From IMG/VR virus record IMGVR_UViG_2609459832_000003, positions 1-19,442 of that record: a stretch of 19,442 nt of DNA. The stretch is one strand, 5' to 3'. The notes beneath the pieces were generated by a model. The model had not been told where the DNA came from, did no database searches, and worked only from the letters and a program-made list of their open reading frames with translations. Position numbers and translations under genes: made by a program. This document shows, piece by piece, positions 583 through 19,442 of this stretch. Position 1 is the stretch's first letter. Every line of letters starts with the position of its first letter. The stretch comes from a virus. Lineage: Duplodnaviria; Heunggongvirae; Uroviricota; Caudoviricetes.

Positions 583-605
583 AGCGGCTCTCCTTTTATT
601 TTATG

Positions 606-3062: not shown

Positions 3063-3607
3063 GCCTCCATCGCTTTATCAGGTTTGTCGGTGTTACTGCC
3101 CTGACCGTTATCTCTGTGACGATGCCCGTTATAGGCAAGCCGCATCGCTGACATGGTGGTGCCGCCGGAGTCGCACAGGTCTTTCACCTGTCCTGTCACT
3201 TCCAGGTCCATTTCAAAACGTGCTTCAGGTGCATTGCGAAACGTGATCGTTTTACCTGCACCGTCCACCACGATCCCCTCCCGGGTCAGCGTCAAGGACT
3301 GCCCCTGATCGTCATAGACAGCCACCTCACCCGTCTTCAGCCCTTTCAGGCGGTAGCGCCGATCCGACACCGTAACAACCACCGCATGAGAACGGTCGCC
3401 ATCCGGAAACAACACCACCGCTTCCGCACCGCTGTTTGCGCTTGCGGTAAAACCGTAGGGTTCAAGATGTTCAACCCCGGCTTTGGGTTCACCGGCAATC
3501 AGGGACACATCCACGGTCTGACATTTCGTGGCGGCACTGATGCTTTTCACCACGGCCCGACCAATCAGGCCGAGGAGTTGTCGCTGCATGACTTCAATCG
3601 TCCTCAT
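3059..3607 (-). CDS. Baseplate assembly protein V-like / central spike (Mu gp45 homologue)
   Basis: 182-aa ORF, synteny gp44-gp45-gp46. Size fits the phage baseplate assembly protein V family. Confidence 0.7.
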   Translation of the reverse strand: MRTIEVMQRQLLGLIGRAVVKSISAATKCQTVDVSLIAGEPKAGVEHLEPYGFTASANSGAEAVVLFPDGDRSHAVVVTVSDRRYRLKGLKTGEVAVYDDQGQSLTLTREGIVVDGAGKTITFRNAPEARFEMDLEVTGQVKDLCDSGGTTMSAMRLAYNGHRHRDNGQGSNTDKPDKAMEA

Positions 3608-4686: not shown

Positions 4687-6011
4687 TGCACTGGCACCTT
4701 CAGAGGGATCACCGGCACAAAGCCGGGATGCGTAATGGCATTACGCCGGATAATGTCCTCGTCACGCGCCGCGTTATCAAACCAGGTCGCCGCCAGCACC
4801 AGCGCGGGTAAAACCTCATCCGGTGTGCGCTGAATGATCCGTGCAGACTGTTCAAGGCGCGTGTTGATATCCGCATTCAGATCTGCTTTCACCCGGCGCA
4901 GCGCCAGAAACAGCGCATCACTGGTTGTACGGGACAACTCCTTATCAATTGCCGTATTCAGTGTGTCGCGAATGTCGGTCAGTTCTTCCCACGTCGGCAG
5001 GTCAACCGTGTTTTTCACCGCCGGTGCATTGTTCAGTGCCGGATGCGTGACGGAAGGCCAGCCAGTGCTCTGCGCAGGTGTTGTTGCCTGCCCCACTGTG
5101 GCATTCTGCATCACTGCGGAAGTTGTTGGCGCAGGCAATCGGGTGACGGCATACGCCGCTTCGCTGATTGCGGTCGTACGAAGGGTGCTGGCAACCACGT
5201 TACGCTGCTGCGTCGCCGTGGCGGTAGTTTTACTGTCCGTTTTCCAGATGCCGCGCGGTTGCAGATCGCTGCCGAGGCTGACACCGGAAAGCGTTTTGAT
5301 CATGGTGACAAGGTCGCTGGCGTTACCATAAAGGCGTTTCCCGGTACGCCACATTTTCTGCACCTGCTCAACGAAATTTTTGCCTGACGATGGTGGCGGC
5401 AGAAGTACCGAGATATCCCCCTGCAACAGCCTGGCAGCATCCGATACGGCAGAATCCACCACTTTCATCGCATCAGAAACATACCCAAGCATTGTGCTGG
5501 CATTACCTACGACGTCGTTCTGCACAAAATCTGCCACGCCATCGATACTGAAACCACTGAAGCTGTCACTGATGCAGTCATCCAGTGCAGAACAGGATGA
5601 CATCAGCGTCTGCGCCGTCGCCGCACCTGAAGTGGGGTAAGAGAGTTCTCCCGCTTCGACAAACTTCAGGTCAAAGCGGACAATACGCCCTTCGCTCTTC
5701 GATGTGCTGACCCGAACCTCCCCGTCAACACAGACTTTCAGCTCACCGTATGTCGGATGGACAAGCGTGCCGGGACCGGGTTTATTCAGCGCGTCAATCA
5801 GGCGATCGCGCTGGTCAAAGCAGTCATCTCCCACCACATAAGCCGTGATGGACGGGCGGAAAGTGATTTTCCCCAGGTCTTCGGTATAGGGTTTGTCACG
5901 GTTCGGGTATTCGTGCGTTTCCACACGACGACCGGTTCCCGCACTTTCTTCTTCAACCTTAAACGGCACGCCGCGAAATGACGCGTCCTGAAGTCTGTCT
6001 TTCCACGTCAT
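4683..6011 (-). CDS. DNA circulation protein (Mu gp43 'N' family)
   Basis: N-terminus MTWKDRLQDASFRGVPFKV...GRRVETHEYPNRDKPYTEDLG matches the conserved DNA-circulation N-terminal domain. 442 aa. GGAG Shine-Dalgarno 6 nt upstream of the ATG at 6011. Confidence 0.8.
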   Translation of the reverse strand: MTWKDRLQDASFRGVPFKVEEESAGTGRRVETHEYPNRDKPYTEDLGKITFRPSITAYVVGDDCFDQRDRLIDALNKPGPGTLVHPTYGELKVCVDGEVRVSTSKSEGRIVRFDLKFVEAGELSYPTSGAATAQTLMSSCSALDDCISDSFSGFSIDGVADFVQNDVVGNASTMLGYVSDAMKVVDSAVSDAARLLQGDISVLLPPPSSGKNFVEQVQKMWRTGKRLYGNASDLVTMIKTLSGVSLGSDLQPRGIWKTDSKTTATATQQRNVVASTLRTTAISEAAYAVTRLPAPTTSAVMQNATVGQATTPAQSTGWPSVTHPALNNAPAVKNTVDLPTWEELTDIRDTLNTAIDKELSRTTSDALFLALRRVKADLNADINTRLEQSARIIQRTPDEVLPALVLAATWFDNAARDEDIIRRNAITHPGFVPVIPLKVPVQ

Positions 6012-6026
6012 ATAAACTCCGGATAC

Positions 6027-6082
6027 AAAAAACCCGCCAAATCTGCTTTGTCAGTTATTTACAGCGCAGAAGATGTGGCGGG
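6027..6082 (-). terminator. Rho-independent terminator at the 3' end of the AT-rich moron
   Basis: On the minus strand, CCCGCCA (rc of 6076-6082) pairs with UGGCGGG (rc of 6033-6039), with further AUCU/AGAU pairing inside, followed directly by U6 (rc of the A-run 6027-6032). It lies 20 nt after the moron stop codon and just before the gp43 ribosome-binding site. Confidence 0.6.
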
Positions 6083-6101
6083 AATCTAATATTTTTAATT
6101 A

Positions 6102-6596
6102 CTATCTGAGTTGAACATCAATGGAATAAACATCACCACTCTTTATAAATTTAGAATCTGTCCTTTCATCAAAAGATTCAAATGACTGTACATTTAAAAA
6201 CTTTTTCATTTTATTTTCAAAAATACTTTCATTAACACCAGTTAAATATTTGAATGCTCTACCAGCAAGGACCTCATTACTTAAATCCATTGTGTTTTTA
6301 TTGTCTTTGAAAAACCAAACAATAACCTTTTGTGGGCATGATGGATTATAAACAGATATATAAAACTGCGGCTCATATTTTTCATCAGCATCATCACTGA
6401 GCATTTCTTCAGAAGATAATTCTCTTCTGAATTCATATTGCCGCTTAGTGATTCCTTCATCCTTTATTATCTCTTGCTTAACTGGTGCAATACCTATAGA
6501 AGAGATTAATTCTGACTCATTAAAGTTGAACTTACACTCTTCCGCAGCCAAGTTAAAAGATAAAAGTGCAGATATAAAAAAAACAAAGATACGCAT
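6102..6596 (-). CDS. Hypothetical secreted (signal-peptide) protein of unknown function, encoded by an AT-rich moron
   Basis: Complete ORF, stop at 6102. Longest ORF starts at 6614 (MIEGMIM...), but the ATG at 6596 has a GAAGGG Shine-Dalgarno 6 nt upstream and gives a textbook signal peptide: MR + IFVFFISALLSF + NLA/AEE. Very AT-rich codon usage unlike all neighbours. Two Cys in the mature part. No family recognised from memory. Confidence 0.7.
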   Translation of the reverse strand: MRIFVFFISALLSFNLAAEECKFNFNESELISSIGIAPVKQEIIKDEGITKRQYEFRRELSSEEMLSDDADEKYEPQFYISVYNPSCPQKVIVWFFKDNKNTMDLSNEVLAGRAFKYLTGVNESIFENKMKKFLNVQSFESFDERTDSKFIKSGDVYSIDVQLR

Positions 6597-6626
6597 AATC
6601 ATCCCTTCAATCATTTGTAAGGAATG

Positions 6627-6658
6627 ATTATATTAACTACTTAAAGCTGAAAAGCCAA
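6627..6658 (-). promoter_or_regulatory. Candidate sigma70-type promoter for the moron gene
   Basis: On the minus strand: TTGGCT (rc of 6653-6658), 17-nt spacer, TAATAT (rc of 6630-6635), overlapping a perfect TATAAT (rc of 6627-6632). Sits in the 81-bp AT-rich gap between the tape-measure stop and the moron ORF. Predicted start site would give a ~25-nt leader to the 6596 ATG. Confidence 0.35.
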
Positions 6659-6695
6659 ATCATGCCAGACAAAAACACATTAATCATTTTGTACA

Positions 6696-8528
6696 CTACC
6701 TGAACCGCGTATAGCCAACATCATGGCTGACATCAAAACCGCTGGATCGCGTTTCCATAACCCGCATACCCGGAGGCGAATTCACAAAAGAGACCTTGAT
6801 CTCACCATCAACTTTTGGCACAAAAGCTTTGTTAATCATGAAGGGATTCGGGCCTGTGGCATCGGAGGCGTTGTTTGACTGAGCCGGATCTACCGCCGGA
6901 TAAGGTGTGTATCCCCGCGCCGGTATTCCCGTCCCATAAGCATCATAAGCACCCGCGCCCCACTGCGCAGAGTTAATGGCATCGACCGTGTCACCGGAAC
7001 TGTCGGTAAACCACTCAATAATGGGCTTCAGCTTGTCCCACATATCCTGAAACCACTTAACAACCGGCCCCCAGTTATTGATCACCATTCCCAGCGGCGA
7101 CCAGGCAAAAACTTTCTTAAGGAGTTCCCAGCCAGCCTCAAAATAAGGACCAATGGTTTCCCAGAGCTTCTTAAAATAAGGTCCGACAACATCCCAGTTA
7201 GTGATAATTAATCCCGCAGCCAGAGCAATCGCCGTCGCAATCATGCCAATCGGCGTCATCGACATGATCCTGCTGACAATACTGATGGCACCGCCCACGC
7301 CCATCAATCCCAGTTTCAGAATCGCAAGACCGGCAGCAAGCCCGACGATGCCGCGAATAACCCGGGGATTTTCATCCGCAAACTTCGTGAATTTTTCCCC
7401 CAACTCCCCCAGCCATTGCGTGATATTTTTGGCGTCACCAGAAAATGCGCCGCCAATAGCCGCAAGGCCGTTAGTTGCGGTCCCTGTCATTGCCTCCCAC
7501 AGATTGGACAGCGTACCAAGCTGTGCCTGAACACGTTTATTCAGGCTGGCCTGTTTATTCATCTTCTGCTGGATCTGATCGTAACCATCCTTTCCTTTAT
7601 CGATCAGAGCATTGACCACCTGAAGGGTTTCGGCATCATCACCAAATATTGCCTTAAGTACACCTGTTCGCTTAACGTCGGTCAGTTTTCGCAGCTTTGC
7701 CAGTTGCTTAAACATGTTATCAAGACCGCCAAAACTCCCTTTGCCGTCAGTAAAATCGAGCTGCACTCCGAGTTTCTGGCGGGCCATGACTTTATTGACG
7801 TCCCTGATTTTCTTAACGCTTAATCCGGACTGGATAACTTTTCGCAGGGCGTTACCTGCCGACTCCCCGTTCATCCCCATCTGATCCATCATGACGCTGA
7901 TGGGGGCAAGGCTCTGTGCAGCCTGAAGACCGTCCTTGTTCACCATCTTCAGAACAGAGCTGGTTTTAGTGAAGAAGGACAACATGTTGGTATCGTCAAC
8001 GCCCAGATAAAACGCCTTCTGGATAGTGTCGAACAGCCCCATCATGTCTTCTGACGCCGTTCCGGTAGCATCCTGCATCTTTGCGGCAAACTCGGCAGCC
8101 GCTTCCGGTGTTTTTTTCAGTTGTACCGCAAGATAAGCTGTCGCTTTACCCACACCGCCAAGAATGTTTTCTGCCGGGATCCCCTGACGCACCAGCATCT
8201 GCATCATGTTCTGGAAATCAGCCGTTGTACCGGGTAGCTGGTTACCCAGGCCAATAGCCAGTTTATTGATGTCCTGAAAGCGCTTTCCAACCTCGCCGTT
8301 CGCATCCATCATGGCGACTTTCAGCCCGGTGGCGGCGTTTTCCTGATCGGCATAAGATTTCAGGGAAAGCGTCAAACCCGCTGCCAGTCCGCCACCAAGC
8401 GCCAGCCCACCCTGTGACGCTTCTTCCGCCTGGCGTTTAAATCCCCGGATTTTCTTTTGCATTTTCGACAGCGCGGGAGAAAGCCTGTCGACACCGGTGA
8501 TCAACGCCTTAAGCTCAAATTCAGCCAT
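6696..8528 (-). CDS. Tail tape measure protein
   Basis: 610-aa ORF after the chaperone/frameshift pair. Central hydrophobic stretch and periodic aromatic residues (NWDVVGPYFKKLWETIGPYFEAGWELLKKVFAW...WFQDMWDKL) are typical of tape-measure proteins. Gly/Ala-rich. Confidence 0.85.
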   Translation of the reverse strand: MAEFELKALITGVDRLSPALSKMQKKIRGFKRQAEEASQGGLALGGGLAAGLTLSLKSYADQENAATGLKVAMMDANGEVGKRFQDINKLAIGLGNQLPGTTADFQNMMQMLVRQGIPAENILGGVGKATAYLAVQLKKTPEAAAEFAAKMQDATGTASEDMMGLFDTIQKAFYLGVDDTNMLSFFTKTSSVLKMVNKDGLQAAQSLAPISVMMDQMGMNGESAGNALRKVIQSGLSVKKIRDVNKVMARQKLGVQLDFTDGKGSFGGLDNMFKQLAKLRKLTDVKRTGVLKAIFGDDAETLQVVNALIDKGKDGYDQIQQKMNKQASLNKRVQAQLGTLSNLWEAMTGTATNGLAAIGGAFSGDAKNITQWLGELGEKFTKFADENPRVIRGIVGLAAGLAILKLGLMGVGGAISIVSRIMSMTPIGMIATAIALAAGLIITNWDVVGPYFKKLWETIGPYFEAGWELLKKVFAWSPLGMVINNWGPVVKWFQDMWDKLKPIIEWFTDSSGDTVDAINSAQWGAGAYDAYGTGIPARGYTPYPAVDPAQSNNASDATGPNPFMINKAFVPKVDGEIKVSFVNSPPGMRVMETRSSGFDVSHDVGYTRFR

Positions 8529-8703
8529 GTGTGCGTTTCTCCTGCTCTATCCTGTTTGCCTGACTGACCAGCAAGGGAATTTCACTGATCGGCATATTCA
8601 GCAATTCGAAGGGATTAATGCGCCAGTAGCTGGCGCAGTCAAAGAAGCGATCAGTGAGGTATTCAGCCGTCAGGCCTGGAGGAAAAAACCAGCCACAAGC
8701 CAC
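8521..8703 (-). CDS. -1 frame C-terminal extension of the tail assembly chaperone (expressed as a fusion by programmed frameshift, not as a separate gene)
   Basis: ORF in the -1 frame relative to the chaperone, overlapping its last ~11 codons and ending 5 nt before the tape-measure ATG. Slippery heptamer at the overlap (see 8682-8688). Confidence 0.65.
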   Translation of the reverse strand: MACGWFFPPGLTAEYLTDRFFDCASYWRINPFELLNMPISEIPLLVSQANRIEQEKRTHG

Positions 8704-8939
8704 GCCGCTGCATTCAGGTCTGCCGGAGACATCTGGTCGACAGAGCTTTGCGGCACTTTCGCCAGCCGCACAATGTATTTCGACACCACATGCGCCAGAA
8801 GTCTGACGGACTCATCCTGATTCATCTGGTAGGGATACCCCAGCTCGCGGACATCCTTCCCGGTGGGCTCATCAAACTCCAGTACGGAGAGTGTCTCGCC
8901 ATGAGCAGTAATCGGTTTCTTTAACTCAAGCTCTTTCAT
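8670..8939 (-). CDS. Tail assembly chaperone (lambda G-like role; Mu gp41-like position)
   Basis: 89-aa ORF between tube and tape-measure genes. Start overlaps the tube stop (TAATG at 8937-8941). Ends 3 codons after a slippery site. Confidence 0.7.
   Translation of the reverse strand: MKELELKKPITAHGETLSVLEFDEPTGKDVRELGYPYQMNQDESVRLLAHVVSKYIVRLAKVPQSSVDQMSPADLNAAAWLVAGFFLQA
8682..8688 (-). promoter_or_regulatory. Programmed -1 ribosomal frameshift slippery heptamer T_TTT_TTC
   Basis: Minus-strand sequence GCU GGU UUU UUC CUC CAG GCC UGA. The zero-frame codons TTT TTC form an X_XXY_YYZ heptamer; a -1 slip reads TTT TTT CCT CCA GGC... into the 8521-8703 ORF. Confidence 0.65.
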
Positions 8940-9295
8940 TACTGGTAATCCCCTTCTTCACCGTGGAACTCAAGATCAACCGTGCCTTCTTCGGCATTAT
9001 GGTTCGCTTCGCCGTGCAGCCAGGCAGACGACAGTACATAGACCTGACCGTTCGCCAGCTCGGCAGTGATGGTCATCTCATCAGACGAGGTGATTTTGCC
9101 CACCGGAAAATTCTTCGGCACCTTGAAGGTCCCTTTGACATAAGGCGCACGGTGAGTTTCCTTGCGGTCCACTGAACCGTCCAGGCCGATGATGTCATCA
9201 TTGACCGTCCTGTTCATGGGCACCTCAATGCCGCCGGTCAGCGATAGCTGCTGACCGTCAATTTTGAAATAACAGGTTCCCCCGATACGGGCCAT
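8939..9295 (-). CDS. Tail tube protein (contractile tail; Mu gp40 'M'-like)
   Basis: 118-aa ORF immediately after the sheath gene (TAATG overlap at 9293-9297). Size and synteny. Confidence 0.75.
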   Translation of the reverse strand: MARIGGTCYFKIDGQQLSLTGGIEVPMNRTVNDDIIGLDGSVDRKETHRAPYVKGTFKVPKNFPVGKITSSDEMTITAELANGQVYVLSSAWLHGEANHNAEEGTVDLEFHGEEGDYQ

Positions 9296-10791
9296 TATGC
9301 AGACTCCTCTGAATACTGAAGACGGAACTGGTTAACCACGGCAAAGACACGCAACTGGTTAACATAGTCAGGCGGGAACAGCGTGTTCAGGCGATTTGGA
9401 TCGCTGGCATCACGCTCCACAACCAGGTACTGCTTGAACAGTTCGTAGTTTTCCACGATCCCCGCACGCTCGAGCTGACGGTAGGTTGCCAGCAGTTCCC
9501 CTTTGATCACCGCCGGGGTGACAATCGCCTGACCGGGACCAAAGCGGGTACCGTCACTGGCAAGCTTGTGACGCCCGTACTTACTGGTAATGACGGATTT
9601 CAGTTTGCGCAGTACATACGCACTGGTATGCAGCGTCTCGCTGTCGAGGTAGCTGTTATCCGCAACCCCGTAAGCGTTTTTCCTGTACGTGGTGACATCA
9701 CGCTGAATGCGCAGCACCCCGCTTTCGACATACGCCGTTGCCACGCCATGAGACAGCAGGGTCTGCTGCTCGGTCATCGTGAACCGTTTCCCCTTCGGCG
9801 CAGGCAGCATACCCACCAGCTCACCGGTCTGCGTGGGACGTGCCGGATCGTTGCGGATAAACACTGCCGCGCGGGCGGTACGGCTGGCTGCCAGCTCGTC
9901 GGCAGGCGTCTGGGGGTCTTTTTCGTACCCCGCCAGGGTAATGTGCTGCTGGTTAAACTGGTCACCTGCGGTCACCAGTTCTGACAGCGTGCCGGTCTTT
10001 GCCGTATACACATGACCATACAGCTGACGCGCATAGCTCCAGCGACCGCTGGTATCGTTCATCTCGGTCACCAGCGTGTTAACGGAGGCCGTGTCGCTGA
10101 ACGGCAGGCCGATATAATCAAACGGCTCATCCGCCATTGCAGCCACCGCGCCGGTGAGAACAGGAGCGCCCGTTCCGGCGGTACCCGTCGCCACGGCAAT
10201 CTGTACGCCCGCTGGCAGCACTTCGCCCCCACCAAAGCCGTAGTAATTGAGGCTGACAGGAATTTCATTCCCGCAAAGCCCCTTATGACGCGCGGTCAGT
10301 GTGACCACGCCTGCCGAAGATGAAGCCGTAAACGGCAGGGTCGGAACGGCATTGATGGCATCCTGGATACTGCTGGCAATCATCGTGACGTTATCGCCGT
10401 TAGTCACCGGTGCCTGCACGCGGGTACGTCCCACATACACATTCACCGTGCCGGTTTCGGTTGCCGCCCCGGTCACCGTCAGCGTAACCGTTGCCGCCGC
10501 GCCTGTGGATTCAGGAACGGCAATCACATACAGCTCGCCAAACGGGTCAGTCTGGCGATAAGCCTCGACCATACGCGCCAGCTGACTTCCCGCACCACAA
10601 ATCTGGCGTGCATAGTCTGCCGACGGCATCAGTACCAGACTGTTGGCAACAATCTCTGCACCGTTATTGGCATGACCAATCAGCAGCGATGCTCCGCTGT
10701 CCTGTGCAGTATTCGCCGCCTGGTTATCCATTTCCGCATAAAACAACGGAACCAGCGTATTCGACGGAATGGTGTTAAAGCTTATCGTCAT
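9295..10791 (-). CDS. Tail sheath protein (contractile tail; Mu gp39 'L'-like)
   Basis: 498-aa ORF followed by tube, chaperone and tape measure. Size and synteny characteristic of myovirus sheath proteins. Confidence 0.85.
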   Translation of the reverse strand: MTISFNTIPSNTLVPLFYAEMDNQAANTAQDSGASLLIGHANNGAEIVANSLVLMPSADYARQICGAGSQLARMVEAYRQTDPFGELYVIAVPESTGAAATVTLTVTGAATETGTVNVYVGRTRVQAPVTNGDNVTMIASSIQDAINAVPTLPFTASSSAGVVTLTARHKGLCGNEIPVSLNYYGFGGGEVLPAGVQIAVATGTAGTGAPVLTGAVAAMADEPFDYIGLPFSDTASVNTLVTEMNDTSGRWSYARQLYGHVYTAKTGTLSELVTAGDQFNQQHITLAGYEKDPQTPADELAASRTARAAVFIRNDPARPTQTGELVGMLPAPKGKRFTMTEQQTLLSHGVATAYVESGVLRIQRDVTTYRKNAYGVADNSYLDSETLHTSAYVLRKLKSVITSKYGRHKLASDGTRFGPGQAIVTPAVIKGELLATYRQLERAGIVENYELFKQYLVVERDASDPNRLNTLFPPDYVNQLRVFAVVNQFRLQYSEESA

Positions 10792-10945
10792 CGGTATTCA
10801 CCTTTTTATTCACGCGCCGGATATCACCCGCTGCTTCACGGCGCAGCCAGTAGTTGTTCTCGTCAACATTTCGCCCTTCGGCGGGCAAAAGGTCGCCGCG
10901 GGCAGGGTCAGGCACTGACCGCCCTTTAACAGGTTTGACAAACAT
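10775..10945 (-). CDS. Small conserved pre-sheath protein (56 aa; recalled as DUF2635-like)
   Basis: Not in the ORF track (below 60 aa). ATG at 10943-10945 with GAGGA 5 nt upstream; stop TAA at 10775-10777 overlaps the sheath start. Translation MFVKPVKGRSVPDPARGDLLPAEGRNVDENNYWLRREAAGDIRRVNKKVNTDDDKL resembles, from memory, small proteins found upstream of sheath genes in Mu-like tail clusters. Confidence 0.5.
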   Translation of the reverse strand: MFVKPVKGRSVPDPARGDLLPAEGRNVDENNYWLRREAAGDIRRVNKKVNTDDDKL

Positions 10946-10953
10946 GAGGATCC

Positions 10954-11514
10954 TCAGGAAGGAAGGGTTATTACGGTGTGATGTTCGATATCGCCGTCAG
11001 GCCCGTTACCGGGCTCGAGATAATCAACATCAATCGCCAGCGTTTGCAGTTCATCCAGACTGTTCAGATCATCCTGCTGGCGGGTATCGTCTTCAGTCAG
11101 CTCGCTGATGACCGAAAAATCGAACTGATAAATCAGCTCATGACGATTCAGATCCAGCAGCGTGCCGCCGTCATAGGTAATCGGGTTACCGCACGCTTCC
11201 GGGTTCCAGCCCAGCAGGGCCTTAAAGAGCATCTGCCGGACATCGTCCACCACATCATACGAGGCAAACTGACCGCGCTCATCACGCCCGTTACTCAGTA
11301 TGACAACCACGGAGAAGGCCTCTTTCAGCTCCTGCCAGTAGTCGGTCTGGCTTTTGTTTTCTCCCGGAGAGTCATCCCCCGGTACCACATACGCCGCCGG
11401 GAGTCTCAGCTTTCCGACCTCCGGCAGATTTTTGAACTGTGCCGCGCCTGCCACCCGGTTTTCAAAACACGGGCAGCGAGCACGCAGCGCAGCAATAACA
11501 GGCGTCAGTTTCAT
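10954..11514 (-). CDS. Virion/tail-completion protein (Mu gp37 / DUF1834-like)
   Basis: 186-aa acidic ORF between the head-tail joining genes and the pre-sheath/sheath genes. ATGA overlap with the upstream gene. Assignment rests mainly on synteny. Confidence 0.5.
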   Translation of the reverse strand: MKLTPVIAALRARCPCFENRVAGAAQFKNLPEVGKLRLPAAYVVPGDDSPGENKSQTDYWQELKEAFSVVVILSNGRDERGQFASYDVVDDVRQMLFKALLGWNPEACGNPITYDGGTLLDLNRHELIYQFDFSVISELTEDDTRQQDDLNSLDELQTLAIDVDYLEPGNGPDGDIEHHTVITLPS

Positions 11515-12017
11515 CTGCGTCGTCGCTCCGGCTTCAGTGATTTACGTAATTCCCGCGCCAGAAAATAGCGTGTCCAGCTGCGGTTCTTTTCAAGCGTTTC
11601 CACCATAAAGTTATTACGTGGAGCCAGCCGCCAGCCGCTGCCACCGGATGCACCACGATGATGACTACGACGACGTTTTGCTCCTCCCCGGACACCAAAA
11701 AACAGAAACGCCGGATAGAAGTCACCAGAGATCATCCGGTTCCCCTTCCCGTTGCGCTGGTTAGGGGCAATGCGTGTCATAAAACCGGCTCGCTTTTTAC
11801 TGGCTCTCGGCACCATATAACCAATCGAACGAGCCAGGCGTCCGGTCTGATAACCGGGGTTTTCACCCGGTGCCGACCGCGCACGGCGCATCACCAGCCG
11901 TCGGGCATCACGCATATGACGCTGACCAATCGTGACAAACGCCCGCCGGACACGGGCGCGGTTAAAGCGCATCTCCGCGGGCTGCTGAACATCAACGTGC
12001 AAAAAGGAAGTCGCCAT
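11511..12017 (-). CDS. HK97 gp10-family head-tail joining / virion morphogenesis protein
   Basis: 168-aa very basic ORF following the head-closure gene. Position and size fit the HK97 gp10 family. Confidence 0.55.
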   Translation of the reverse strand: MATSFLHVDVQQPAEMRFNRARVRRAFVTIGQRHMRDARRLVMRRARSAPGENPGYQTGRLARSIGYMVPRASKKRAGFMTRIAPNQRNGKGNRMISGDFYPAFLFFGVRGGAKRRRSHHRGASGGSGWRLAPRNNFMVETLEKNRSWTRYFLARELRKSLKPERRRR

Positions 12018-12402
12018 TGTTGCCTCCGTGACTCTGCGTAAATTCGCCCAGCTCCGTACACTCCAGCAGCAGAAAGCGCCGCGCCCCGTTCAGATCACGC
12101 TGACGTTTCACCCGGTACACACTGTCATCACAGACCACCTCATAATCAGCAGTGATCCCCCGGCGGTAACGAATGGTGATGTAATGGGTGATGGCGTCCC
12201 CGGTCTGCGCGGTTTCCTGCCAGGTGGTGGCACTGGTCTGGATAACCTTCGCCCATGTCCGGAACGTAACCGGGTATTGAGGCTCCACGCCAAAGTTATC
12301 CGCGGGCATATCCACCCGCTGGCGGAGCAGGACGCGTTTATTCAGTTCGCCGGGGTCCGGCAGCATGTAGGTTGCGCTGGTCTGCGCCTGACGAATTTTC
12401 AT
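11992..12402 (-). CDS. Head closure / head-tail adaptor protein
   Basis: 136-aa ORF directly after the gp6-like connector gene (ATGA overlap at 12399-12402). Synteny of the HK97-type head-tail joining set. Confidence 0.55.
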   Translation of the reverse strand: MKIRQAQTSATYMLPDPGELNKRVLLRQRVDMPADNFGVEPQYPVTFRTWAKVIQTSATTWQETAQTGDAITHYITIRYRRGITADYEVVCDDSVYRVKRQRDLNGARRFLLLECTELGEFTQSHGGNNGDFLFAR

Positions 12403-12722
12403 TGCGGAAAGTACCTGTACGGGCCGACAAGCCAGCCAAAACTCTGCGGCATGTCGAGTTTCTCCACTTCCGTAACCGACGAGCGGTTTTCGTAAAAATG
12501 GCTGATAAGCATCAGCATCCCCAGACGAATATCATCCGGCAGGTGCAGCCCGTCCGGATCGCTGTCCGGAATGGATTCATCCGGTGCATAGAGCTTCCGG
12601 TTCAGATACGTTTCCGTCCGCTTTTGCGCCGCACAGGCCAGCAGTTGCAGATGGCGGTCATCAGCATCGAAATCCTCATCCAGCCGGAGTTGGGCTTTAA
12701 TCTCTTCCATTGTCAGAAGCAT
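12399..12722 (-). CDS. Head-tail connector protein (gp6-like)
   Basis: 107-aa ORF (MLLTMEEIKAQLRLDEDFDADD...) downstream of the capsid gene. Size and position typical of gp6-like connector proteins. Confidence 0.6.
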   Translation of the reverse strand: MLLTMEEIKAQLRLDEDFDADDRHLQLLACAAQKRTETYLNRKLYAPDESIPDSDPDGLHLPDDIRLGMLMLISHFYENRSSVTEVEKLDMPQSFGWLVGPYRYFPQ

Positions 12723-12724
12723 AC

Positions 12725-12925
12725 TCAGCTCTCTTTACTGGTCGTGGCTTTTTTCTCTTTTGCCGCTTTACTGCTTTTTGCACTGGTTCCGCGCTCAGCT
12801 AACCCGGCCTGAAGTGCAATCTCCTGCACCCGGGCAGGAAGCGCCCCGTCGTCATACTCACCGGCCCGAATGACCTCAACACGCATACCGTCCGGTGACC
12901 ATTTCAGATCTTGTTTCAGGATCAT
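12725..12925 (-). CDS. Small hypothetical protein with a Lys/Ser-rich C-terminal tail
   Basis: 66-aa ORF between the major capsid and connector genes. Stop overlaps the next start (TGAGTATG). No family recognised. Confidence 0.4.
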   Translation of the reverse strand: MILKQDLKWSPDGMRVEVIRAGEYDDGALPARVQEIALQAGLAERGTSAKSSKAAKEKKATTSKES

Positions 12926-12947
12926 GATTCTTCACCCGTCAGAACAG

Positions 12948-12967
12948 GGGGCGCGGTTCCGCGCCCC
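12948..12967 (-). other. GC-rich hairpin just downstream of the major capsid gene
   Basis: GGGGCGC (12948-12954) / GCGCCCC (12961-12967) inverted repeat with a 6-nt loop, 8 nt after the capsid stop codon. No U-run follows. Confidence 0.5.
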
Positions 12968-12974
12968 TGAATGA

Positions 12975-14180
12975 TTACGCCGCTGCAATCTTCAGCAGTT
13001 TGATGGCCTGCGAATCGACCAGCATCCCGCCGGTGCGCTTGGTGGTATAAAAACCGACAAACGGTTTATTGGTGTACGGGTCACGCAGAATGCGGGTGCC
13101 GATACGGTCAACGATGGTGTAACCCCGTTTGAAGTTACCAAATGCAATGGCTTTCGCATCAGCGGCGATATCCGGCATCTGTTCGTTTTCAGCGATACCG
13201 TAACCCGCCAGAGAGGACGGCTGCCCCAGCTCCAGCCCCGGACGCCACAGATAGTTACCCTCGCTGTCTTTCAGCAGACGGATGGCAAACAGGCTGTTGT
13301 TGTTCATCATGAACTTCGCGCCAGTGCGGTGTGCCTTACGCAGCGTGTAAATCAGTTTGATAATGGCGTCTGCGGTCACCGCAGTCGCTTCGCCGGATAC
13401 AATATGCTGAAGTTTGCCGAACGCCCGGACCTTGTCGGTTTCATCAGTGGATTCATACGCCAGGAACCCTTTCGGCTTCTTGGTGCCATCGCCTGAGGTA
13501 AAGGCAATTTCTTCCTGTTCGGCAAATTCGGTTGCCAGCTCGCTGTTGATCCAGGCCTCCACGTTGAAAAAGGCATCATCCAGCATTTTCTGGGTGGCCT
13601 GCGGGTTGCCGTAAATTTCCCCCATGAGAGGTTCAATCAGCTCCAGTCTGGAGGTGGCAGTCTGGGATCGCGTATCCGTTTCCCCCACCCATCCGGAAGC
13701 CGTACCGCCCAGATTCACCAGTTTTTTGTAGTCGGAACCGCCAACGGTGATCACCGTGGCTTCCTGACGCATCACCACTTCATCTTTCAGCAGGTTAAGA
13801 ATGTTGCGATCCAGTTCTTCCGGCACGGCGTAGCCACCGTCTTCATCGGTACCCACCTGCAATGCCTTACGCTCCAGATCGCGCAGACCGTCTTCACGGC
13901 CTTTACGCAGGAAGCCCACAAACGCCTCTTTATGCTCGGTGGCCAGTTTATTTTGCGCTCCACCAGCCGGACGTTTCAGCTCAAGCAGCTCTTTTTCAAG
14001 GTCGCTTTTGAGATTTTCCAGCTCGCTGAGTTTCCCGTTCAGGGTTTCCACCTGCCCGGCAAGCTTGCCTTTTTCCTGCTCAATCGCATCCACGCGCTTG
14101 TCGTTCTTTGCTTTGAAGTCGTCAAACTTCTGCTGCAGCTCCTGCGCGACCTGTTCGACATCTTTAATATCAACCGCCAT
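12975..14180 (-). CDS. Major capsid protein, HK97 family, with N-terminal coiled-coil delta (scaffold) domain
   Basis: 401-aa ORF. The first ~100 aa are highly charged and coiled-coil-like (QELQQKFDDFKAKNDKRVDAIEQEKGKL...LEKELLELK), followed by a capsid fold region. Sits directly after the prohead protease. Confidence 0.9.
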   Translation of the reverse strand: MAVDIKDVEQVAQELQQKFDDFKAKNDKRVDAIEQEKGKLAGQVETLNGKLSELENLKSDLEKELLELKRPAGGAQNKLATEHKEAFVGFLRKGREDGLRDLERKALQVGTDEDGGYAVPEELDRNILNLLKDEVVMRQEATVITVGGSDYKKLVNLGGTASGWVGETDTRSQTATSRLELIEPLMGEIYGNPQATQKMLDDAFFNVEAWINSELATEFAEQEEIAFTSGDGTKKPKGFLAYESTDETDKVRAFGKLQHIVSGEATAVTADAIIKLIYTLRKAHRTGAKFMMNNNSLFAIRLLKDSEGNYLWRPGLELGQPSSLAGYGIAENEQMPDIAADAKAIAFGNFKRGYTIVDRIGTRILRDPYTNKPFVGFYTTKRTGGMLVDSQAIKLLKIAAA

Positions 14181-14194
14181 CGTATTTCTCCTGA

Positions 14195-14845
14195 TTAGAA
14201 GTTCAGATTTTTCAGTGCATTCAGTGCAGAACCCACATCCTCAGCGTCGCGCAGGGACAGTGCGCCATAGCCCCCGGCCATGAATGCTTTGGCCTGGGTA
14301 CGGGAGAGTCCGACATCACGCAGGACTCTTTCGATTTTTTTCTGTTCGGGGATTTCCCCGCGGGCCAGTGCGTTCTTGACGTCGCTGATCCGCGCCTCGT
14401 CGTTAGACGGGAACGTCACCAGGCTGACTTCCCAGAGGTCGATTTCTTTCAGCAGAAAGGCTTCTTTGCTCCGGTCGTATTCCCAGTCTTTCAGGACGTA
14501 CCCAATAGAAAGGCCGGTTAACGAACCGGCCTTCATGTGTGCATGTGCGCGTTTTGCGAGGGGATCATCATCAATAAGCAACCGTCCCCTGACGTAAAGC
14601 CCGACATCGTCTTCCTTCATTTCGGTGTAAACACCGATGGGTTCATCCATGCGGTGCTGCCAGAGCAGCGCAGGTAACGCTTTTCTGTCACTCCACGCCC
14701 GCAGGGAAGCAGCAAATGCCCCGGACATCACCACATCATCGTGGCTGTCCTTTACACCAAAGACGGAGCCATACCCTTCAAACTCACCGGAGTCACTGAC
14801 AGATTTCAGACTCAGCGGTACATCAAGACGTTGTTTCGTCTGCAT
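14195..14845 (-). CDS. Prohead maturation protease (HK97 family)
   Basis: The ORF extends to 14881, but the ATG at 14843-14845 has an AAGGA Shine-Dalgarno 8 nt upstream and avoids a 59-nt overlap with the portal gene. Sequence ...SGEFEGYGSVFGVKDSHDDVV... is typical of HK97-type proteases. Confidence 0.85.
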   Translation of the reverse strand: MQTKQRLDVPLSLKSVSDSGEFEGYGSVFGVKDSHDDVVMSGAFAASLRAWSDRKALPALLWQHRMDEPIGVYTEMKEDDVGLYVRGRLLIDDDPLAKRAHAHMKAGSLTGLSIGYVLKDWEYDRSKEAFLLKEIDLWEVSLVTFPSNDEARISDVKNALARGEIPEQKKIERVLRDVGLSRTQAKAFMAGGYGALSLRDAEDVGSALNALKNLNF

Positions 14846-16064
14846 TGGCGTTATCCTTCTGCTTACCGGCTTTACTGCCATCGGAGGGTTTCGTGGTCAT
14901 GTTCATCGGTGTGAGATAGACATCACCACCGGGACGCGGATTCATATCTTCCAGGTCGCGGCAGTCATTGGGAGAGTAAATTCCCCAGTTGATCCCGGTG
15001 GCGTAGGCTTCAAAACGGGACTTCATATCCCCGCGCAGTAACGCCCCGGCGTTAAATTTGGCGTAATAAACGCCCTGCTTACTTTTTCGTACCAGTCCGG
15101 TGTTGATCCGCTGTTCGATGCGGGTCAGATACGGCACCAGTGAATAGTTGATAAATCCCAGCCCCAGCTCTTCGATATTGTTGAAGGTGGCGCGATCGGT
15201 GTTCTGCACCATGTGCAACGGCACCCGGAACAGACGACAGATTTCTTCAAGCTGAAACTTGCGGGTTTCCAGGAACTGGCTGTCCTCGGCGTTCAGCGCC
15301 ATCGACTTCCAGTCCAGCCCCATCTCAAGGATCATCGGGCGGTGAGCATTGCCAAGCCCGGTGTGACGCTCCTCAAAATCTTTCTTCAGGCGCTCATAAG
15401 CCTGATCTGACAGCGTCTGCTCTGTACGCAACACACCCGACGTCACCGCGCCATTGCTGAACAGTCTGGCCCCGTGCTCTTCGGTCGCTGCCGCCAGCGA
15501 TATTGCCTCGCGGGCATAGGCGATGGGATTCAGCCCCACCAGTCCGTCCAGCGTCAGCGTGCGCACATGCCAGATATCCTCCTGGCTCAGTACATCCGTG
15601 GAGCCATCCGGGAATGTGACCTGATAGATCGGCTCCCAGCTACTGTTAAGCTTCGGTACCACACAGCCGGGATCGACGGGCAGCAGTTCAGCCACTTCGC
15701 CAAATGCTTTCACTTTGTAGGCGTAAAAGTTTCCCCGCAGGCACAGACAGGTGACCACCAGCTCCCAGAACTCCTGCGGCGTCATATAGCCATTGGGATG
15801 CGTGGAGATCAGTTTATGCAGACGTTCGCCGGTGGCTCTCTGCTTCAGGCTGCCGTTCAGGTGATACAGATTGCAGGGCAACATCCCGACCGACTCTGCC
15901 AGCACTCTGACGCAGGAAAAAACCGCCGTCAGTCGCATGGCCCGCTGACTGCTGATCTGCTTTCCGGTATAGGTGTCGTAGGACAACCCGATGGCATCCG
16001 CCAGCTCTGCTGGCGTGGTCACCGGTGCGTCACTTTTTCGTTGAAATAATCCCGAAAAGAACAC
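14823..16064 (-). CDS. Portal protein (HK97 family)
   Basis: 413-aa ORF between the terminase and protease genes. GTG start at 16062-16064 with GGAGG 6 nt upstream, overlapping the stop of the preceding small ORF (TAGTG). Confidence 0.9.
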   Translation of the reverse strand: MFFSGLFQRKSDAPVTTPAELADAIGLSYDTYTGKQISSQRAMRLTAVFSCVRVLAESVGMLPCNLYHLNGSLKQRATGERLHKLISTHPNGYMTPQEFWELVVTCLCLRGNFYAYKVKAFGEVAELLPVDPGCVVPKLNSSWEPIYQVTFPDGSTDVLSQEDIWHVRTLTLDGLVGLNPIAYAREAISLAAATEEHGARLFSNGAVTSGVLRTEQTLSDQAYERLKKDFEERHTGLGNAHRPMILEMGLDWKSMALNAEDSQFLETRKFQLEEICRLFRVPLHMVQNTDRATFNNIEELGLGFINYSLVPYLTRIEQRINTGLVRKSKQGVYYAKFNAGALLRGDMKSRFEAYATGINWGIYSPNDCRDLEDMNPRPGGDVYLTPMNMTTKPSDGSKAGKQKDNANADETTS

Positions 16065-16246
16065 TATTTACCTCCACCAACAGACAGCTGTGTACGATCG
16101 AGATATCGCGCTACCAGCCACGACCAGAACAGGCACAACGCCCCGGCAACAACAAACCCCGCCGGGGGATAAATCAGCCAGGCACCATACGCCAGCAAAA
16201 GCGCCCCCAGCACGCCCACCAGAGGCGCGAGAATCAGCATGATCAT
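16064..16246 (-). CDS. Small predicted membrane protein (two hydrophobic segments), function unknown
   Basis: 60-aa [52 protein letters not shown]... GAGGT Shine-Dalgarno 5 nt upstream of the ATG at 16246. Stop overlaps the portal start, so it is translationally coupled. Confidence 0.5.
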
Positions 16247-16257
16247 AATTACCTCAG

Positions 16258-17991
16258 TTAAAGCGAGCGGATCCCATAGGACTCAATGTGGTCAGACAGC
16301 GTGTCTTCTTTCTCGTACAGCATGGCTCTGCCAACCGCCATAATCAGCGCAACTGCACCGTCAATTTTGTTTTCCGCCTGCTCTTTGACGGGTTTCACCA
16401 CATCATCGTTACCCGGAATGGTTTTGCCGACCACATTGCCGATACACCAGGTCATGATGGGATTGCCATCATGATGAAAGCGCCCCGATTCAATTGCCGC
16501 TTCCAGCTCTTTCATCGGGTCGGACATGTTGGTGTAGTTCTGAATGATAGTGACGGGATTCAGGTCTTCATCAGCAAGGTCATGTGACAACCCGGTCGCC
16601 CCGAAGGGGTCGATGGGTGACTCACTGACCGGGCTGATTTTGTTCGCCGCTTTGGCCTCCTCGAGGATGTAGCGATAATCCACCTCCGCACCATCGGTAA
16701 CGGTCAGAACGCCCATTTCCACCCATTTCTGAAAGCGTTCGGCTGTCCGGCGATCTTCATTTTTCTCGACGCTGTACACCGTGTCATACGGTACCCAGAA
16801 GCGCGGAGCCACACTGTAGTAATGCGTTTTACCGTCAATCTCGCGGGTATAAAGTCGCGCCATGCTGTTCATATCCAGCTTACGCGCCAGGTCAAAGGCC
16901 AGAATGCACGGCTGCCCCTCGAACTGCTCAAGGGTCAGTGATTTATCCTCGCAGCTCTGCCAGCTCACCAGGTTGAAATACGCCGAACGCGCCGACACCC
17001 AGATATTGAGGTGTTTTGTTTTAAAGACGTTTGCCAGACGGGCGTTATTTTTCGCACGCTGCTGCTGACTTAACAAAAATTCGCGATAAACCGACACGCC
17101 AATATTTGGATTGGCTTTTTCCAGCACCTGCGGGTCGGTCCAGTCATCGCCTTCGTCAACGGTATAGATGATCCCGAACAGTTCATCGTTGGGTACCGAA
17201 CCGTTGAGCATCTCGATAACTTCCCGCCGCTTGTCGTAGCACGGCCCCTCAATGTTGTACCCGGCGGTGGTGATGGCCCACATCAGTGGCTGACGTCGCG
17301 CGCCCATCCCGGTAAGCATCGTGGTATAAAGCGCATCGGTGGCGTGCTCGTGATATTCATCCACCACGGAACAGTGGGGTGATGAACCATCACCGGGGTT
17401 ACCGATCAGCGGTTCAAACCGCGCGCCATCCTCCGGACGGTTCATGTTTGAGGCGTTAACCTCAATCCCGAACGCTTCCGTCAGCATGGGTGTGCGTTTA
17501 CACATCAGTCGCGCCGGGCGAAAGACTTCCCACGCCTGTTTCTCTGTCGTGGCACCGGAATACACTTCCGCGCCAAACTCGTTATCACAGGCAAAACAAT
17601 ACAGGGCAACACCGGCAGAGATTGCCGATTTGCCGTTCTTACGGGGGATTTCGGTATACACCTCCCTGAAGCGGCGCAGCCGGGGGCCTTTATAGACCCA
17701 GCCAAACGCACAGCAGATCACAAAGAGCTGCCACGGTTCCAGCGTGATGGGCATCCTCTTGAATGCCCACTCCCCCTTGGTGTGTGGCAACAGCTGAATA
17801 AATTTCGCGGCCCGTTCAGCCAGGTCCTTGTCGAAGCGGTAACGAAACGACTTACTTTTTTCCGCCATCAGGTCATCAAGATGGCGCTGGCAGGCCTGAA
17901 TCACAAACTGGCAGGCCACAATCTTTCCGCGCACGACATCCCGGGCATACTGATTGGCAGCATTTACGTTGGGGTAAGATTTCCGGCTCAT
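16258..17991 (-). CDS. terL: Terminase large subunit
   Basis: 577-aa ORF with a Walker A-like motif (IPRKNGKSA) in the N-terminal ATPase region. ATGA overlap with terS at 17988-17991. Followed by the portal gene. Confidence 0.9.
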
Positions 17992-18482
17992 GACTCGATA
18001 ATTTTCAGAAACGGGTTAGTGGCTTTCTTCTTCCCCGCCAGGCCAATCAGACGCTGGCGGCTGCTGGGGTCGAGTCCGAGCATTGCCCCCGTACTGCTCA
18101 TCTCGGACTCCTGTTCTTTTTTGGCGGTCAGCTCCGGATTTTTGACCATGCCGCCCATTGCACCGGTGATGGTGTTGCCCTGTCTGGCAATATTTTTCAC
18201 GGCACGTCGCCAGAACTCATAGGCCACGCACCACCGCTCAAGCACTGCGAGGTCAGTCACGCACAGCAGGCCCTGACCGCAGAGTTCTTTGGTTGTCAGT
18301 TGCCACATGATCGTGGCGAGAGGAAACTCTTCTTCAGCGAACCACTCCGGTGGCTCAACACCTTTGATGGGCGTAAAAACAGGTTCATCTTTGTTCAGGG
18401 CTCGCTTGCCGGGGTTTCCGGCCAGCTCCTTGCGCGCCGTTGGCTTAGGGCGACGCCCGGAACGCCCCGCCGTTCCAGCCAT
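17988..18482 (-). CDS. terS: Terminase small subunit (P27 family-like)
   Basis: The ORF-track start at 18491 is a GTG that overlaps the AGGAG Shine-Dalgarno. The ATG at 18480-18482 lies 8 nt after AGGAG and gives [27 protein letters not shown]..., typical of P27-type small terminases. Confidence 0.8.
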
Positions 18483-18532
18483 ATGCGGCACTCCTGGTTA
18501 AATTTCATTTTTCGCGGGTATAAAAAAACGAT

Positions 18533-18581
18533 GGGGCGGGCAGTCCGGAAGACGTCAGGTCACAGGGATTTGACCCGCCCC
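18533..18581 (-). other. GC-rich inverted repeat with downstream U-run in the HNH-terS intergenic region (terminator-like; possible cos/terminase recognition region)
   Basis: GGGGCGGG (18533-18540) and CCCGCCCC (18574-18581) form a perfect 8-bp inverted repeat with a 33-nt spacer containing the palindromes TCCGGA and GACGTC. On the coding strand the stem is followed by AUCG and U7 (rc of 18523-18529). Confidence 0.4.
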
Positions 18582-18607
18582 TCCCCTCTGTCAGTGGGAA
18601 CTGATTC

Positions 18608-18958
18608 TTACTTCAGCCGTTCACGGGCCGTCTTCGCCTTATGACACGGCCAGCACAGGCTCTGCAGATTACTGTCGGCATCAGAGCCGCCATGCGATTT
18701 CGGGATGATGTGGTCGACGGTTTTCGCCTCGCTCACCACACCGACACGCAGACACAACTGACACAGACCTTTATCGCGCTTCAGAATACGGGCACGAATC
18801 ACCGTCCATTTTGAGCCATAGCCACGCTGGTGGCGGCTCAGTCCGCGCTGGTGCTGCCCCCAGCCTTCACCGCGATGCTTATCGCAGTAACCCGAACTGT
18901 CTGTTGTTGTGCCTGCACATCCACGCTTACGACAGGCGCGGGGGATTCGTGATGGCAT
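18608..18958 (-). CDS. HNH endonuclease (terminase-associated)
   Basis: HNH/zinc-finger motifs CQLCL...DHIIPKSHGGSDADSNLQSLCWPCHKAKT. The ATG at 18956-18958 has an AAGGAG Shine-Dalgarno 6 nt upstream; the longer ORF-track start (19033) would read through an intergenic hairpin. Confidence 0.85.
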   Translation of the reverse strand: MPSRIPRACRKRGCAGTTTDSSGYCDKHRGEGWGQHQRGLSRHQRGYGSKWTVIRARILKRDKGLCQLCLRVGVVSEAKTVDHIIPKSHGGSDADSNLQSLCWPCHKAKTARERLK

Positions 18959-19019
18959 TGGAATCTCCTTAATACCGGCATTATCGCAGCCCCTCACTGA
19001 AGGGCTGCTGTAATGCCTG

Positions 19020-19316
19020 TTACTCAGTAACAACTGCGCCTTCCGGTAATTTCATACCGGCAAATACCGGACAACCCGGATGACGATCATCTTCTGTTGC
19101 TTCCAGCATTGACTCACCAAACCACTCCGTCGTGGCGCGACCATCAGCTGCTTTGTAGTGGATCAAGTACTGGTTTTCGCCATCCGTATACTGCGCGCGG
19201 GCTTTAACCTCACCCCATTCATCACTGATACGCATCTCCACCAGTTGAGACAACTCAAACTTAAACGGAGCAGCATCAGCACCAATTACAATCGGTTTGT
19301 TTTCTGTTTTTTCCAT
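19020..19316 (-). CDS. Hypothetical acidic protein upstream of the HNH/terminase genes
   Basis: ORF open to 19367, but AGGAG (rc of 19323-19327) precedes the tandem ATGs at 19319 and 19316 (MMEKTENKPIV...). No family recognised. Confidence 0.45.
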   Translation of the reverse strand: MEKTENKPIVIGADAAPFKFELSQLVEMRISDEWGEVKARAQYTDGENQYLIHYKAADGRATTEWFGESMLEATEDDRHPGCPVFAGMKLPEGAVVTE

Positions 19317-19442
19317 CATCGTCTCCTGATATCGAAGCCCGTCGCCGCACCGGGCACTGATCAACATTTGAGTATTCGCGGCGACAGAAAGAATTTATTT
19401 TATTGAGTAGCCACAAACACAGAATTTCATGCTTACCGGACG

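Follow-up and report, generated by a model that had tools for sequence, protein, structure and literature searches.

What is the function of a short, seemingly structured gap between an HNH endonuclease gene and the small-terminase gene of a tailed phage? The question arises in the window, by which we mean the whole 19,442-nt stretch of DNA analysed here (IMG/VR virus record IMGVR_UViG_2609459832_000003, positions 1 to 19,442). The region under study is its HNH-terS intergenic space, where the head-gene operon begins, and the surrounding genes all lie on the minus strand. An open reading frame of unidentified function (19020-19367) stands upstream of the HNH gene (18608-18958), which encodes a zinc ribbon together with an HNH domain (Pfam HNH, E 7.5e-17). 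On the other side of the gap are terS, encoding a P27-family small terminase (17988-18482; Pfam Terminase_4, E 2e-21), and terL, encoding the large terminase (16258-17991; Pfam TerL_ATPase and TerL_nuclease); past terL follow, on the same strand, the genes for the portal, protease, major capsid, tail sheath, tape measure and baseplate. The start of terS is the ATG at 18480-18482, as in the 495-nt terS of SfV and SfIV, with an in-frame GTG at 18491 as the alternative start in the list of open reading frames, and inspection of the sequence places the Shine-Dalgarno element AGGAG of terS at 18491-18495 (minus strand). An earlier note had drawn attention to the gap for an 8-bp GC inverted repeat, the palindromes TCCGGA and GACGTC, and a U7 run, and had proposed a terminator, a cos or packaging element, or both. 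All of these features are present. The arms GGGGCGGG (18533-18540) and CCCGCCCC (18574-18581), given on the plus strand, form a perfect inverted repeat of 8 bp whose arms are 33 nt apart; the palindromes are found at 18544-18549 (TCCGGA) and 18551-18556 (GACGTC), and the U7 run corresponds to A7 on the plus strand at 18522-18528.

The identity of the region emerged from comparison with characterized phages. A megablast search against phage records retrieved SfII, SfIV, SfV, SfI, phiP27 and Salmonella 118970_sal3. For SfI, the virion termini were determined by direct run-off sequencing and compared with the prophage, which disclosed a 10-nt gap, 5'-TGCCCGCCCC-3', and the authors concluded that packaging is of the cos type, like that of SfV (PMC3636060); one cos site is common to SfI, SfII, SfIV and SfV (PMC3851460). 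The SfI-mapped sequence lies within the intergenic region of the window, at 18533-18542 on the minus strand. The sequence of SfI, SfV, SfIV and SfII from the G-rich box described below (the G-box) to the start of terS is identical to that of the window, and terS plus terL have 97-99% nucleotide identity. Relative to SfIV, the window is 100% identical over 18481-18560, 95-97% identical in the flanks, and 95-100% identical from 18680 to terS; the body of the HNH gene differs from that of SfIV and is phiP27-like, and the two types meet in a mosaic joint around 18700-18760. In the phiP27 record, the homologue of TGCCCGCCCC in the window is CGCCCGCCCC, 10 nt annotated as a misc_feature under the name 'cos-site'. 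The matches to the SfI and phiP27 sites establish that one arm of the repeat is the last eight bases of the cohesive end, as the coding-strand CCCGCCCC falls inside TGCCCGCCCC.

On this sequence comparison, the region would be the cos site of a prophage of the SfV/SfI/phiP27 type whose packaging module (TerL, P27-family TerS and HNH) is HK97-like, a reading to which we assign a probability of roughly 0.85. The cos or packaging alternative in the earlier note is thus borne out by a mapped end in SfI and by an annotated homologue in phiP27. The site is an already known one, and because it is identical to the site mapped in SfI, it is ordinary and probably not a transcription terminator. It is present in 1162 of 5426 complete E. 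coli genomes, and the prophage in the window could be defective. String searches of the literature with TGCCCGCCCC, CCCGCGAAA, GCGGGCGAAG and GGGGCGGG produced unrelated primers or no match. The ends of deposited genomes have the same register. The linear records of SfI, EPP-1 (Edwardsiella), phi644-2 (Burkholderia) and HK97 end after these 10 positions and start at the next base (+1); for EPP-1 and phi644-2, homology instead of measurement may have determined the record ends. The record of the Bacillus phage gamma has a 9-nt end at both record ends in the same register, and in that of Clostridium phage phi3626 a 3' cohesive end of 9 nt is annotated at the corresponding position.

The packaging proteins assign the site to a type. 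TerL of the window is 26% identical to HK97 gp2 over 522 aa (BLASTP, E 3e-30). Its HNH protein matches HK97 gp74 (E 1e-10) and the phage gamma nickase N.phiGamma (38% identity, E 5e-17), and is 95.7% identical to that of phiP27. The small terminase is 50% identical to that of phiP27, and it exhibits no BLASTP similarity to HK97 gp1 (hhalign probability 0.3%), which is not a Terminase_4 protein. As the small terminase is not of the gp1 type, the site in the window is a P27-TerS variant of the HK97-type cos. Profile and PDB searches turned up no solved relative of the P27-family TerS, and a single-sequence AlphaFold model of the protein had a pLDDT of 40. HK97 DNA has 10-nt 3' overhangs, and gp74 stimulates cleavage of its cos (PMC11331095, PMC9410871). 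A lambda-type cos is a different matter. The lambda site resembles ours in having a cut with partly symmetric flanks between a TerS-binding region, next to the terminase genes, and a further element on the opposite side (PMC13595911 and textbook knowledge). It differs in its 12-nt 5' ends, its Nu1-type TerS, its IHF sites and the lack of an HNH protein, and we saw no sequence relation; the TerS of the window belongs to Terminase_4, not to the Nu1 type, and its relative SfI has a 10-nt end.

Read along the minus strand, the site is a series of adjoining elements. It opens with the G-box GGGGAGGGGCGGG (18574-18586), whose eight bases at the 3' end are a repeat arm, and directly 3' of it is the A-rich box TCAAATC (A-box; 18567-18573). 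The 21-nt spacer CCTGTGACCTGACGTCTTCCG (18546-18566) holds GACGTC and most of TCCGGA. The trinucleotide GAC (18543-18545) abuts the 5' side of the 10-nt cohesive end TGCCCGCCCC, the cosN core (18533-18542), with a predicted bottom-strand nick at AC/YG (a slash denotes a boundary of the cohesive end). Positions +1 to +4 are ATCG (18529-18532), with the predicted top-strand nick between 18533 and 18532. The T7 run at +5 to +11 (18522-18528) is the T-tract of a terminase-side box, and ATACCCGCGAAAAATGAAATTT at +12 to +33 (18500-18521) is the candidate binding site of the P27-family TerS.

We then compared this organization across relatives. A scan with one genome per species and a three-sequence TerS alignment found 80 loci in Enterobacterales, Pseudomonas, Burkholderiales, Moraxella and other groups. 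The alignment was anchored on CGCG[AT]A[AT], a T-run was required within 14 nt, and dereplication at 88% identity left 63 sequences. Fraca and Klebsiella 020009, which have other genes after HNH, were left out, as was Vibrio injensis, where the HNH gene abuts terS and there is no cos-like region. Among the P27-TerS loci, 77 of 82 sequences are gapless over 102 nt. In the upstream part of the consensus, a G-box of some 13 nt (77% G) is followed by an A-rich box (7 nt), the 21-nt spacer, GAC and a C-rich stretch of 10 nt; the downstream part reads RTC, NN, W, TTTTT, A, YRCC, CGCGAAA and WWWRAAATT. Since the anchor and the filter act here, the T-run itself and the degree to which +17 to +23 are conserved are partly built in; the register of these elements to AC/YG is independent of them. 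G accounts for 632 of the 819 letters in the 13 G-box columns of the 63 relatives. The A-box is TCAAATC, GTCGAAA or GTAAAAA in all relatives, and the spacer is invariant at 21 nt in the gapless alignment with no conservation of its sequence. Around the cut, A occupies -2 in 59 of the 63 sequences and C occupies -1 in 60, while the second base of the overhang is G in 59; past the cut, +1 is R in 57, +2 is T in 52 and +3 is C in 52. The T-tract at +7 to +10 is kept in 61-62 of the 63, relatives without an inverted repeat included, and C at +16 is universal (63/63). In the P27 family no feature at the cut is more strongly conserved than AC/CG (AC/TG in the SfV group). The phiP27 site agrees with the window in architecture and register and is identical in the G-box, the A-box and the ACCCGCGAAA box; it differs at overhang position 1 (C, compared to T in the window), in the spacer and at +1 to +13.

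Does the inverted repeat represent structure within this arrangement? We measured it against chance. When the 116 nt were shuffled 5000 times with dinucleotides preserved, 9.1% of the shuffles contained a perfect inverted repeat with arms of 8 bp or longer (loop 3-60); 40 such 8-mer pairs occur within the 19.4-kb window, and the spacer palindromes, with their 3-bp arms, were equalled or exceeded in 85% of the shuffles. Folding of the full intergenic RNA was no better than that of shuffles (z = -1.36). The 73-nt core folded at -29.5 kcal/mol, with z = -2.4 as RNA and z = -2.1 as single-stranded DNA. Rfam 15 covariance models had no match up to E 1 over 18300-19442, and a terminator scan and a promoter scan made no call at the region on the coding strand. 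Shuffles and folding z-scores, taken together, give no reason to see in the listed features a structure above chance.

The stability of the core and a U7 run within 4 nt of the stem are what a rho-independent terminator of the HNH (late) transcript would need, with GGGGCGGG and CCCGCCCC as its stem, and such a terminator could co-exist with cos; several rho-independent terminators are predicted in the SfIV genome, at positions that its text does not give (PMC3851460). The geometry argues otherwise, as the stem would enclose 33 nt compared to the usual 3-8, and AUCG intervenes between CCCGCCCC and U7. The relatives argue against it as well. With the 63 sequences aligned, in-register Watson-Crick pairing of the arms amounted to 50.6% of cells, compared to 51-55% when the 3' partner was slid by 1-4 nt; all eight pairs formed in only two sequences, those of the window type and of phiP27; and RNAalifold returned an empty structure, with no consensus. 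The T-tract at +7 to +10 is maintained where the repeat is missing, for example beside the overhangs CGACCGTTCC and CGCGTGTTTG; it behaves like a terminase-side DNA signal and not like the tail of a terminator. A hairpin or terminator is left unsupported by arms that do not co-vary and by the lack of an RNAalifold consensus. Furthermore, the next genes downstream, on the strand of the HNH gene, are terS, terL and the head genes, and lambdoid phages transcribe their late operon through cos under antitermination. We consider a terminator at this position unlikely. Of the 'terminator and/or cos' proposal, the cos part is sustained by the mapped SfI end, and the part concerning structure and termination is not, for want of co-variation and of a fold.

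The same repeat might act as DNA, as a functional cruciform or hairpin, or as a symmetric protein site, that presents the cut to terminase or HNH. It is a perfect 8-bp G+C repeat of which one arm is the cohesive end, the single-stranded DNA core has the z-score of -2.1 given above, and the same 8 bp are kept in phiP27. If the two arms had been held together by selection for pairing, each G-box should match its own overhang better than that of another genome. The mean longest complementary run was 4.75 nt within genomes and 4.69 nt across genomes (permutation p = 0.33, 63 relatives). IMG/VR relatives carry the G-box variants GGGGTGGG, GGGGAGGG and GGGGCAGG with the overhang unchanged. HK97, whose cos works, has the same architecture and no repeat (G9 against CGCCGCCAAA), and the repeat is equally absent in many P27-family relatives. 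A G-rich box and a C-rich overhang yield 4-5 nt of complementarity for free. A role of the repeat as DNA structure or symmetric site is thus, in our judgment, very unlikely. The repeat is rather the product of two separate conserved elements, the G-rich box and the C-rich cohesive end, which are complementary by chance in this lineage, the most complementary one. The nested palindromes sit in the single unconserved stretch of the site. Spacer palindromes with 5-6-bp arms do occur in several relatives, such as AGCCGGAACCGGCT and AGGCGATCGCCT. A conserved spacer dyad was considered and rejected: the summed best stems came to 222, compared to 208 on average and at most 227 under the null, a small excess family-wide. 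The inverted repeat, the palindromes and the U7 run are best read as by-products of DNA signals and not as an RNA or DNA hairpin.

The box whose T-tract is the U7 run, TTTTTAYRCCCGCGAAA, is strongly conserved, and CCCGCGAAA occurs in the same register in 77 of 82 P27-family loci. In most relatives this A/T-rich box, from T7 through AAATTT, is found 8-40 nt upstream of the ribosome-binding site of terS, where it might serve as a terS promoter, an UP element or a translation enhancer. The coding strand holds no sigma-70-like match. In 13 of 74 loci the start of terS is 60-100 nt further away, and the box stays fixed in its register to AC/YG. The linear genomes of SfI, EPP-1 and phi644-2 start 4-6 nt before the T-tract, which places the box at the end of the molecule. 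A function in terS expression is highly improbable on these grounds. Since the register to the cut is kept when the start of terS moves, the box belongs to cos and not to the expression of terS.

By analogy with HK97, the TTTTTAYRCCCGCGAAA box is probably the binding site of the small terminase. For HK97, the TerS site has been resolved to single bases: it is CTAACCCGATTTTTT, at +15 to +29, in which position 21 (C:G) and positions 24-29 (the A-tract) are essential (PMC11331095). The window has T7 at +5 to +11, ACCCGCG at +14 to +20 and then A5, an A-tract that extends to +25. As the TerS of the window has no detectable similarity to gp1, the candidate assignment is one of analogous position and composition.

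The upstream half of the site has a wider distribution. HK97 reads GGGGGGGGGA TCAAATC N21 GAC CGCCGCCAAA / GTTTGAATTTAACGCTAACCCGATTTTTTTAG, that is, a G-run, an A-box identical to that of the window, 21 nt, GAC and a 10-nt C-rich end in the same register. It is served by homologous TerL and HNH proteins, and, as in the window, a CCCG motif followed by a homopolymeric A/T tract is located 14-30 nt past its cut. The differences lie in a small terminase, gp1, with no detectable relation to the P27 family, in the sequence of the downstream box, and in the missing inverted repeat. Phage gamma has the G-box GGGTAGGGGCGGG, the A-box TCGAAAA, N21 and TAC/CGCCGCCCC; in contrast to the window, its end is 9 nt long and its downstream sequence is another one. 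HK97, phi644-2, EPP-1, phage gamma and phi3626 share the register of the G-box, with a slight shift in phi3626. A G-box plus A-box at a fixed 24 nt upstream of the cut is found in HK97, in P27-TerS phages of Gamma- and Betaproteobacteria, in phage gamma and in phi3626, whichever the type of TerS.

This upstream half (G-box, A-box, 21 nt, GAC and overhang) is combined with three types of downstream sequence. The first is the P27-type box, to which the window belongs. The second, CCYTTCCTC...GGTTCGAAAAC-T8, is found in Klebsiella Kp4873-4 and many IMG/VR relatives, where the neighbouring TerS is a divergent Terminase_4 protein. The third is the HK97 sequence beside the unrelated gp1. Judged from these sequence combinations, the upstream half would go with the homologous TerL and HNH, and the downstream half with the type of TerS.

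A mechanism can be sketched from these observations. On concatemeric DNA, TerS would bind close to the cut, on its downstream side, at the T-tract/CCCGCGAAA box, as the HK97 parallel suggests. TerL and HNH would introduce nicks 10 nt apart, in the bottom strand at 18543/18542 and in the top strand at 18533/18532. The RTC downstream of the overhang mirrors the GAC upstream of it, in a GAC-N10-GTC symmetry by which each strand would be nicked just 5' of GTC, giving 10-nt 3' ends. The predicted product is virion DNA with 10-nt 3' cohesive ends, whose sequence comes from SfI. Their 3' polarity is our inference and not a statement of the SfI authors: the two run-off reads left a gap rather than an overlap, hence the 5' ends are recessed and the overhangs are 3'. 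The 3' overhangs of HK97 and the annotated 3' end of phi3626 agree with this polarity. The G-box and the A-box would probably serve the TerL/HNH side, in initiation or in termination.

Which nuclease would cut which strand is suggested by phage gamma. N.phiGamma, an HNH protein encoded beside cos and terminase, is a strand-specific nickase with the target CG^GT, or AC^CG in terms of the complementary strand (Xu and Gupta; PMC3592412). The cohesive end of phage gamma starts at TAC/CG, so that its AC/CG junction equals the measured nick site, and a bottom-strand nick in CG^GT at this junction would create exactly the left boundary that a 3' overhang requires. By this correspondence, the bottom-strand nick would be made at the AC/YG junction by the HNH protein. 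The overhang of the window begins with T and not C (AC/TG), which makes its bottom-strand site CA^GTC, one mismatch from CG^GT. We tentatively put forward a combined reading, which we hold to be possible rather than probable: the G-box/A-box element 24 nt upstream may be a second, cosQ-like sub-site of cos that spans phyla, and AC/CG may mark the bottom-strand nick of HNH, with the top strand cut by TerL 9-10 nt away. Going by the distribution of the sequence, such a sub-site would be read by TerL or HNH. The searchable literature, which does not include key older papers, yielded no description of the upstream G-box/A-box, of the P27 consensus or of the HNH-nick match.

A more distant parallel is offered by herpesviruses, whose pac1 and pac2 elements have G-rich tracts beside a T-rich element, and CGCGGCG by a T-rich region, with cleavage at a fixed distance (PMC13595911). 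The likeness of pac1 and pac2 to the G-box/A-box and to the T-tract/CGCG box of the window is one of composition only.

For the window, the value of the identification lies in annotation alone: it defines where the genome of a very common type of E. coli and Shigella prophage begins and ends, and it cautions against calling such a site a terminator. The side results are modest, though of some use for the study of DNA packaging: a G-box and A-box that reach into phages of Firmicutes, a consensus for the P27-type cos, and a match between AC/CG and the HNH nick. They provide a gapless consensus, at base resolution, for cos sites served by P27-family small terminases, and they separate an upstream half linked to TerL and HNH from a downstream half linked to the type of TerS. 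The link between CG^GT specificity and one of the two cos nicks makes the question of which nuclease cuts which strand directly testable.

Comparison of the window with phages phiP27 and SfIV placed a mosaic joint at 18700-18760, within the HNH gene. On its upstream side, which comprises the open reading frame preceding the HNH gene and two-thirds of that gene from the 5' end, identity to phiP27 is 97-100%; on its downstream side, which takes in the 3' end of the HNH gene together with the cos site, terS and terL, identity to SfIV is 95-100%. The HNH protein itself shows 95.7% identity to that of phiP27 and only about 79% to that of SfIV. The preceding open reading frame (19020-19367, minus strand) encodes 115 amino acids and falls within PHROG 1935, a group of unknown function; no Pfam match was found for it. 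The arrangement is the same in phiP27 (locus L33), where the 115-amino-acid open reading frame lies directly upstream of the HNH gene. Between its stop codon and the start of the HNH gene, the window carries a 7-bp inverted repeat, GCAGCCC N9 GGGCTGC (18986-19008), and no U-run follows this repeat on the coding strand.

The database records of SfV (L002/L004) and SfIV (L003/L005) are linearized between GACGTCT and TCCGGAC. The mapped cohesive end lies 7 nt downstream of this point, and the point does not coincide with the terminus reported for SfI. The SfI paper (PMC3636060) mentions a T-versus-A difference between the cos sites of SfI and SfV, which the SfV record does not show.

The G-rich and A-rich boxes of the upstream cos half are also found upstream of the cohesive end in Bacillus phage Gamma (L181/L182) and in Clostridium phage phi3626 (L183/L184). 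The record of phage Gamma carries the 9-nt end CGCCGCCCC at both termini. In phi3626, the genome of which is A+T-rich, the two boxes are very conspicuous.

The spacing between cos and terS varies among the loci compared. At seven Caballeronia and Paraburkholderia loci (L127, L157, L158, L159, L163, L171 and L173), the cos box is separated from the start of terS by about 60-70 nt, and this stretch contains the conserved motif AGTTACAACGSC. The HNH gene of the Vibrio injensis locus (L143) runs straight into terS with no recognizable cos region between the two, and the cos site of that element must lie elsewhere or be of another kind.

Another arrangement was seen in L011, L033, other IMG/VR loci and Klebsiella Kp4873-4 (L092). 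These relatives have both the HNH gene and the upstream half of cos in common, and their small terminase is a divergent member of the Terminase_4 family; a T8 run is located at about +32, counted from the first base past the cohesive end on the terS side. Their sequence switches either within the final two bases of the 10-nt end or just past them (CGCCCGCC|AA CCCTTCC...). The position of the switch suggests that modules are exchanged at the cut site itself.
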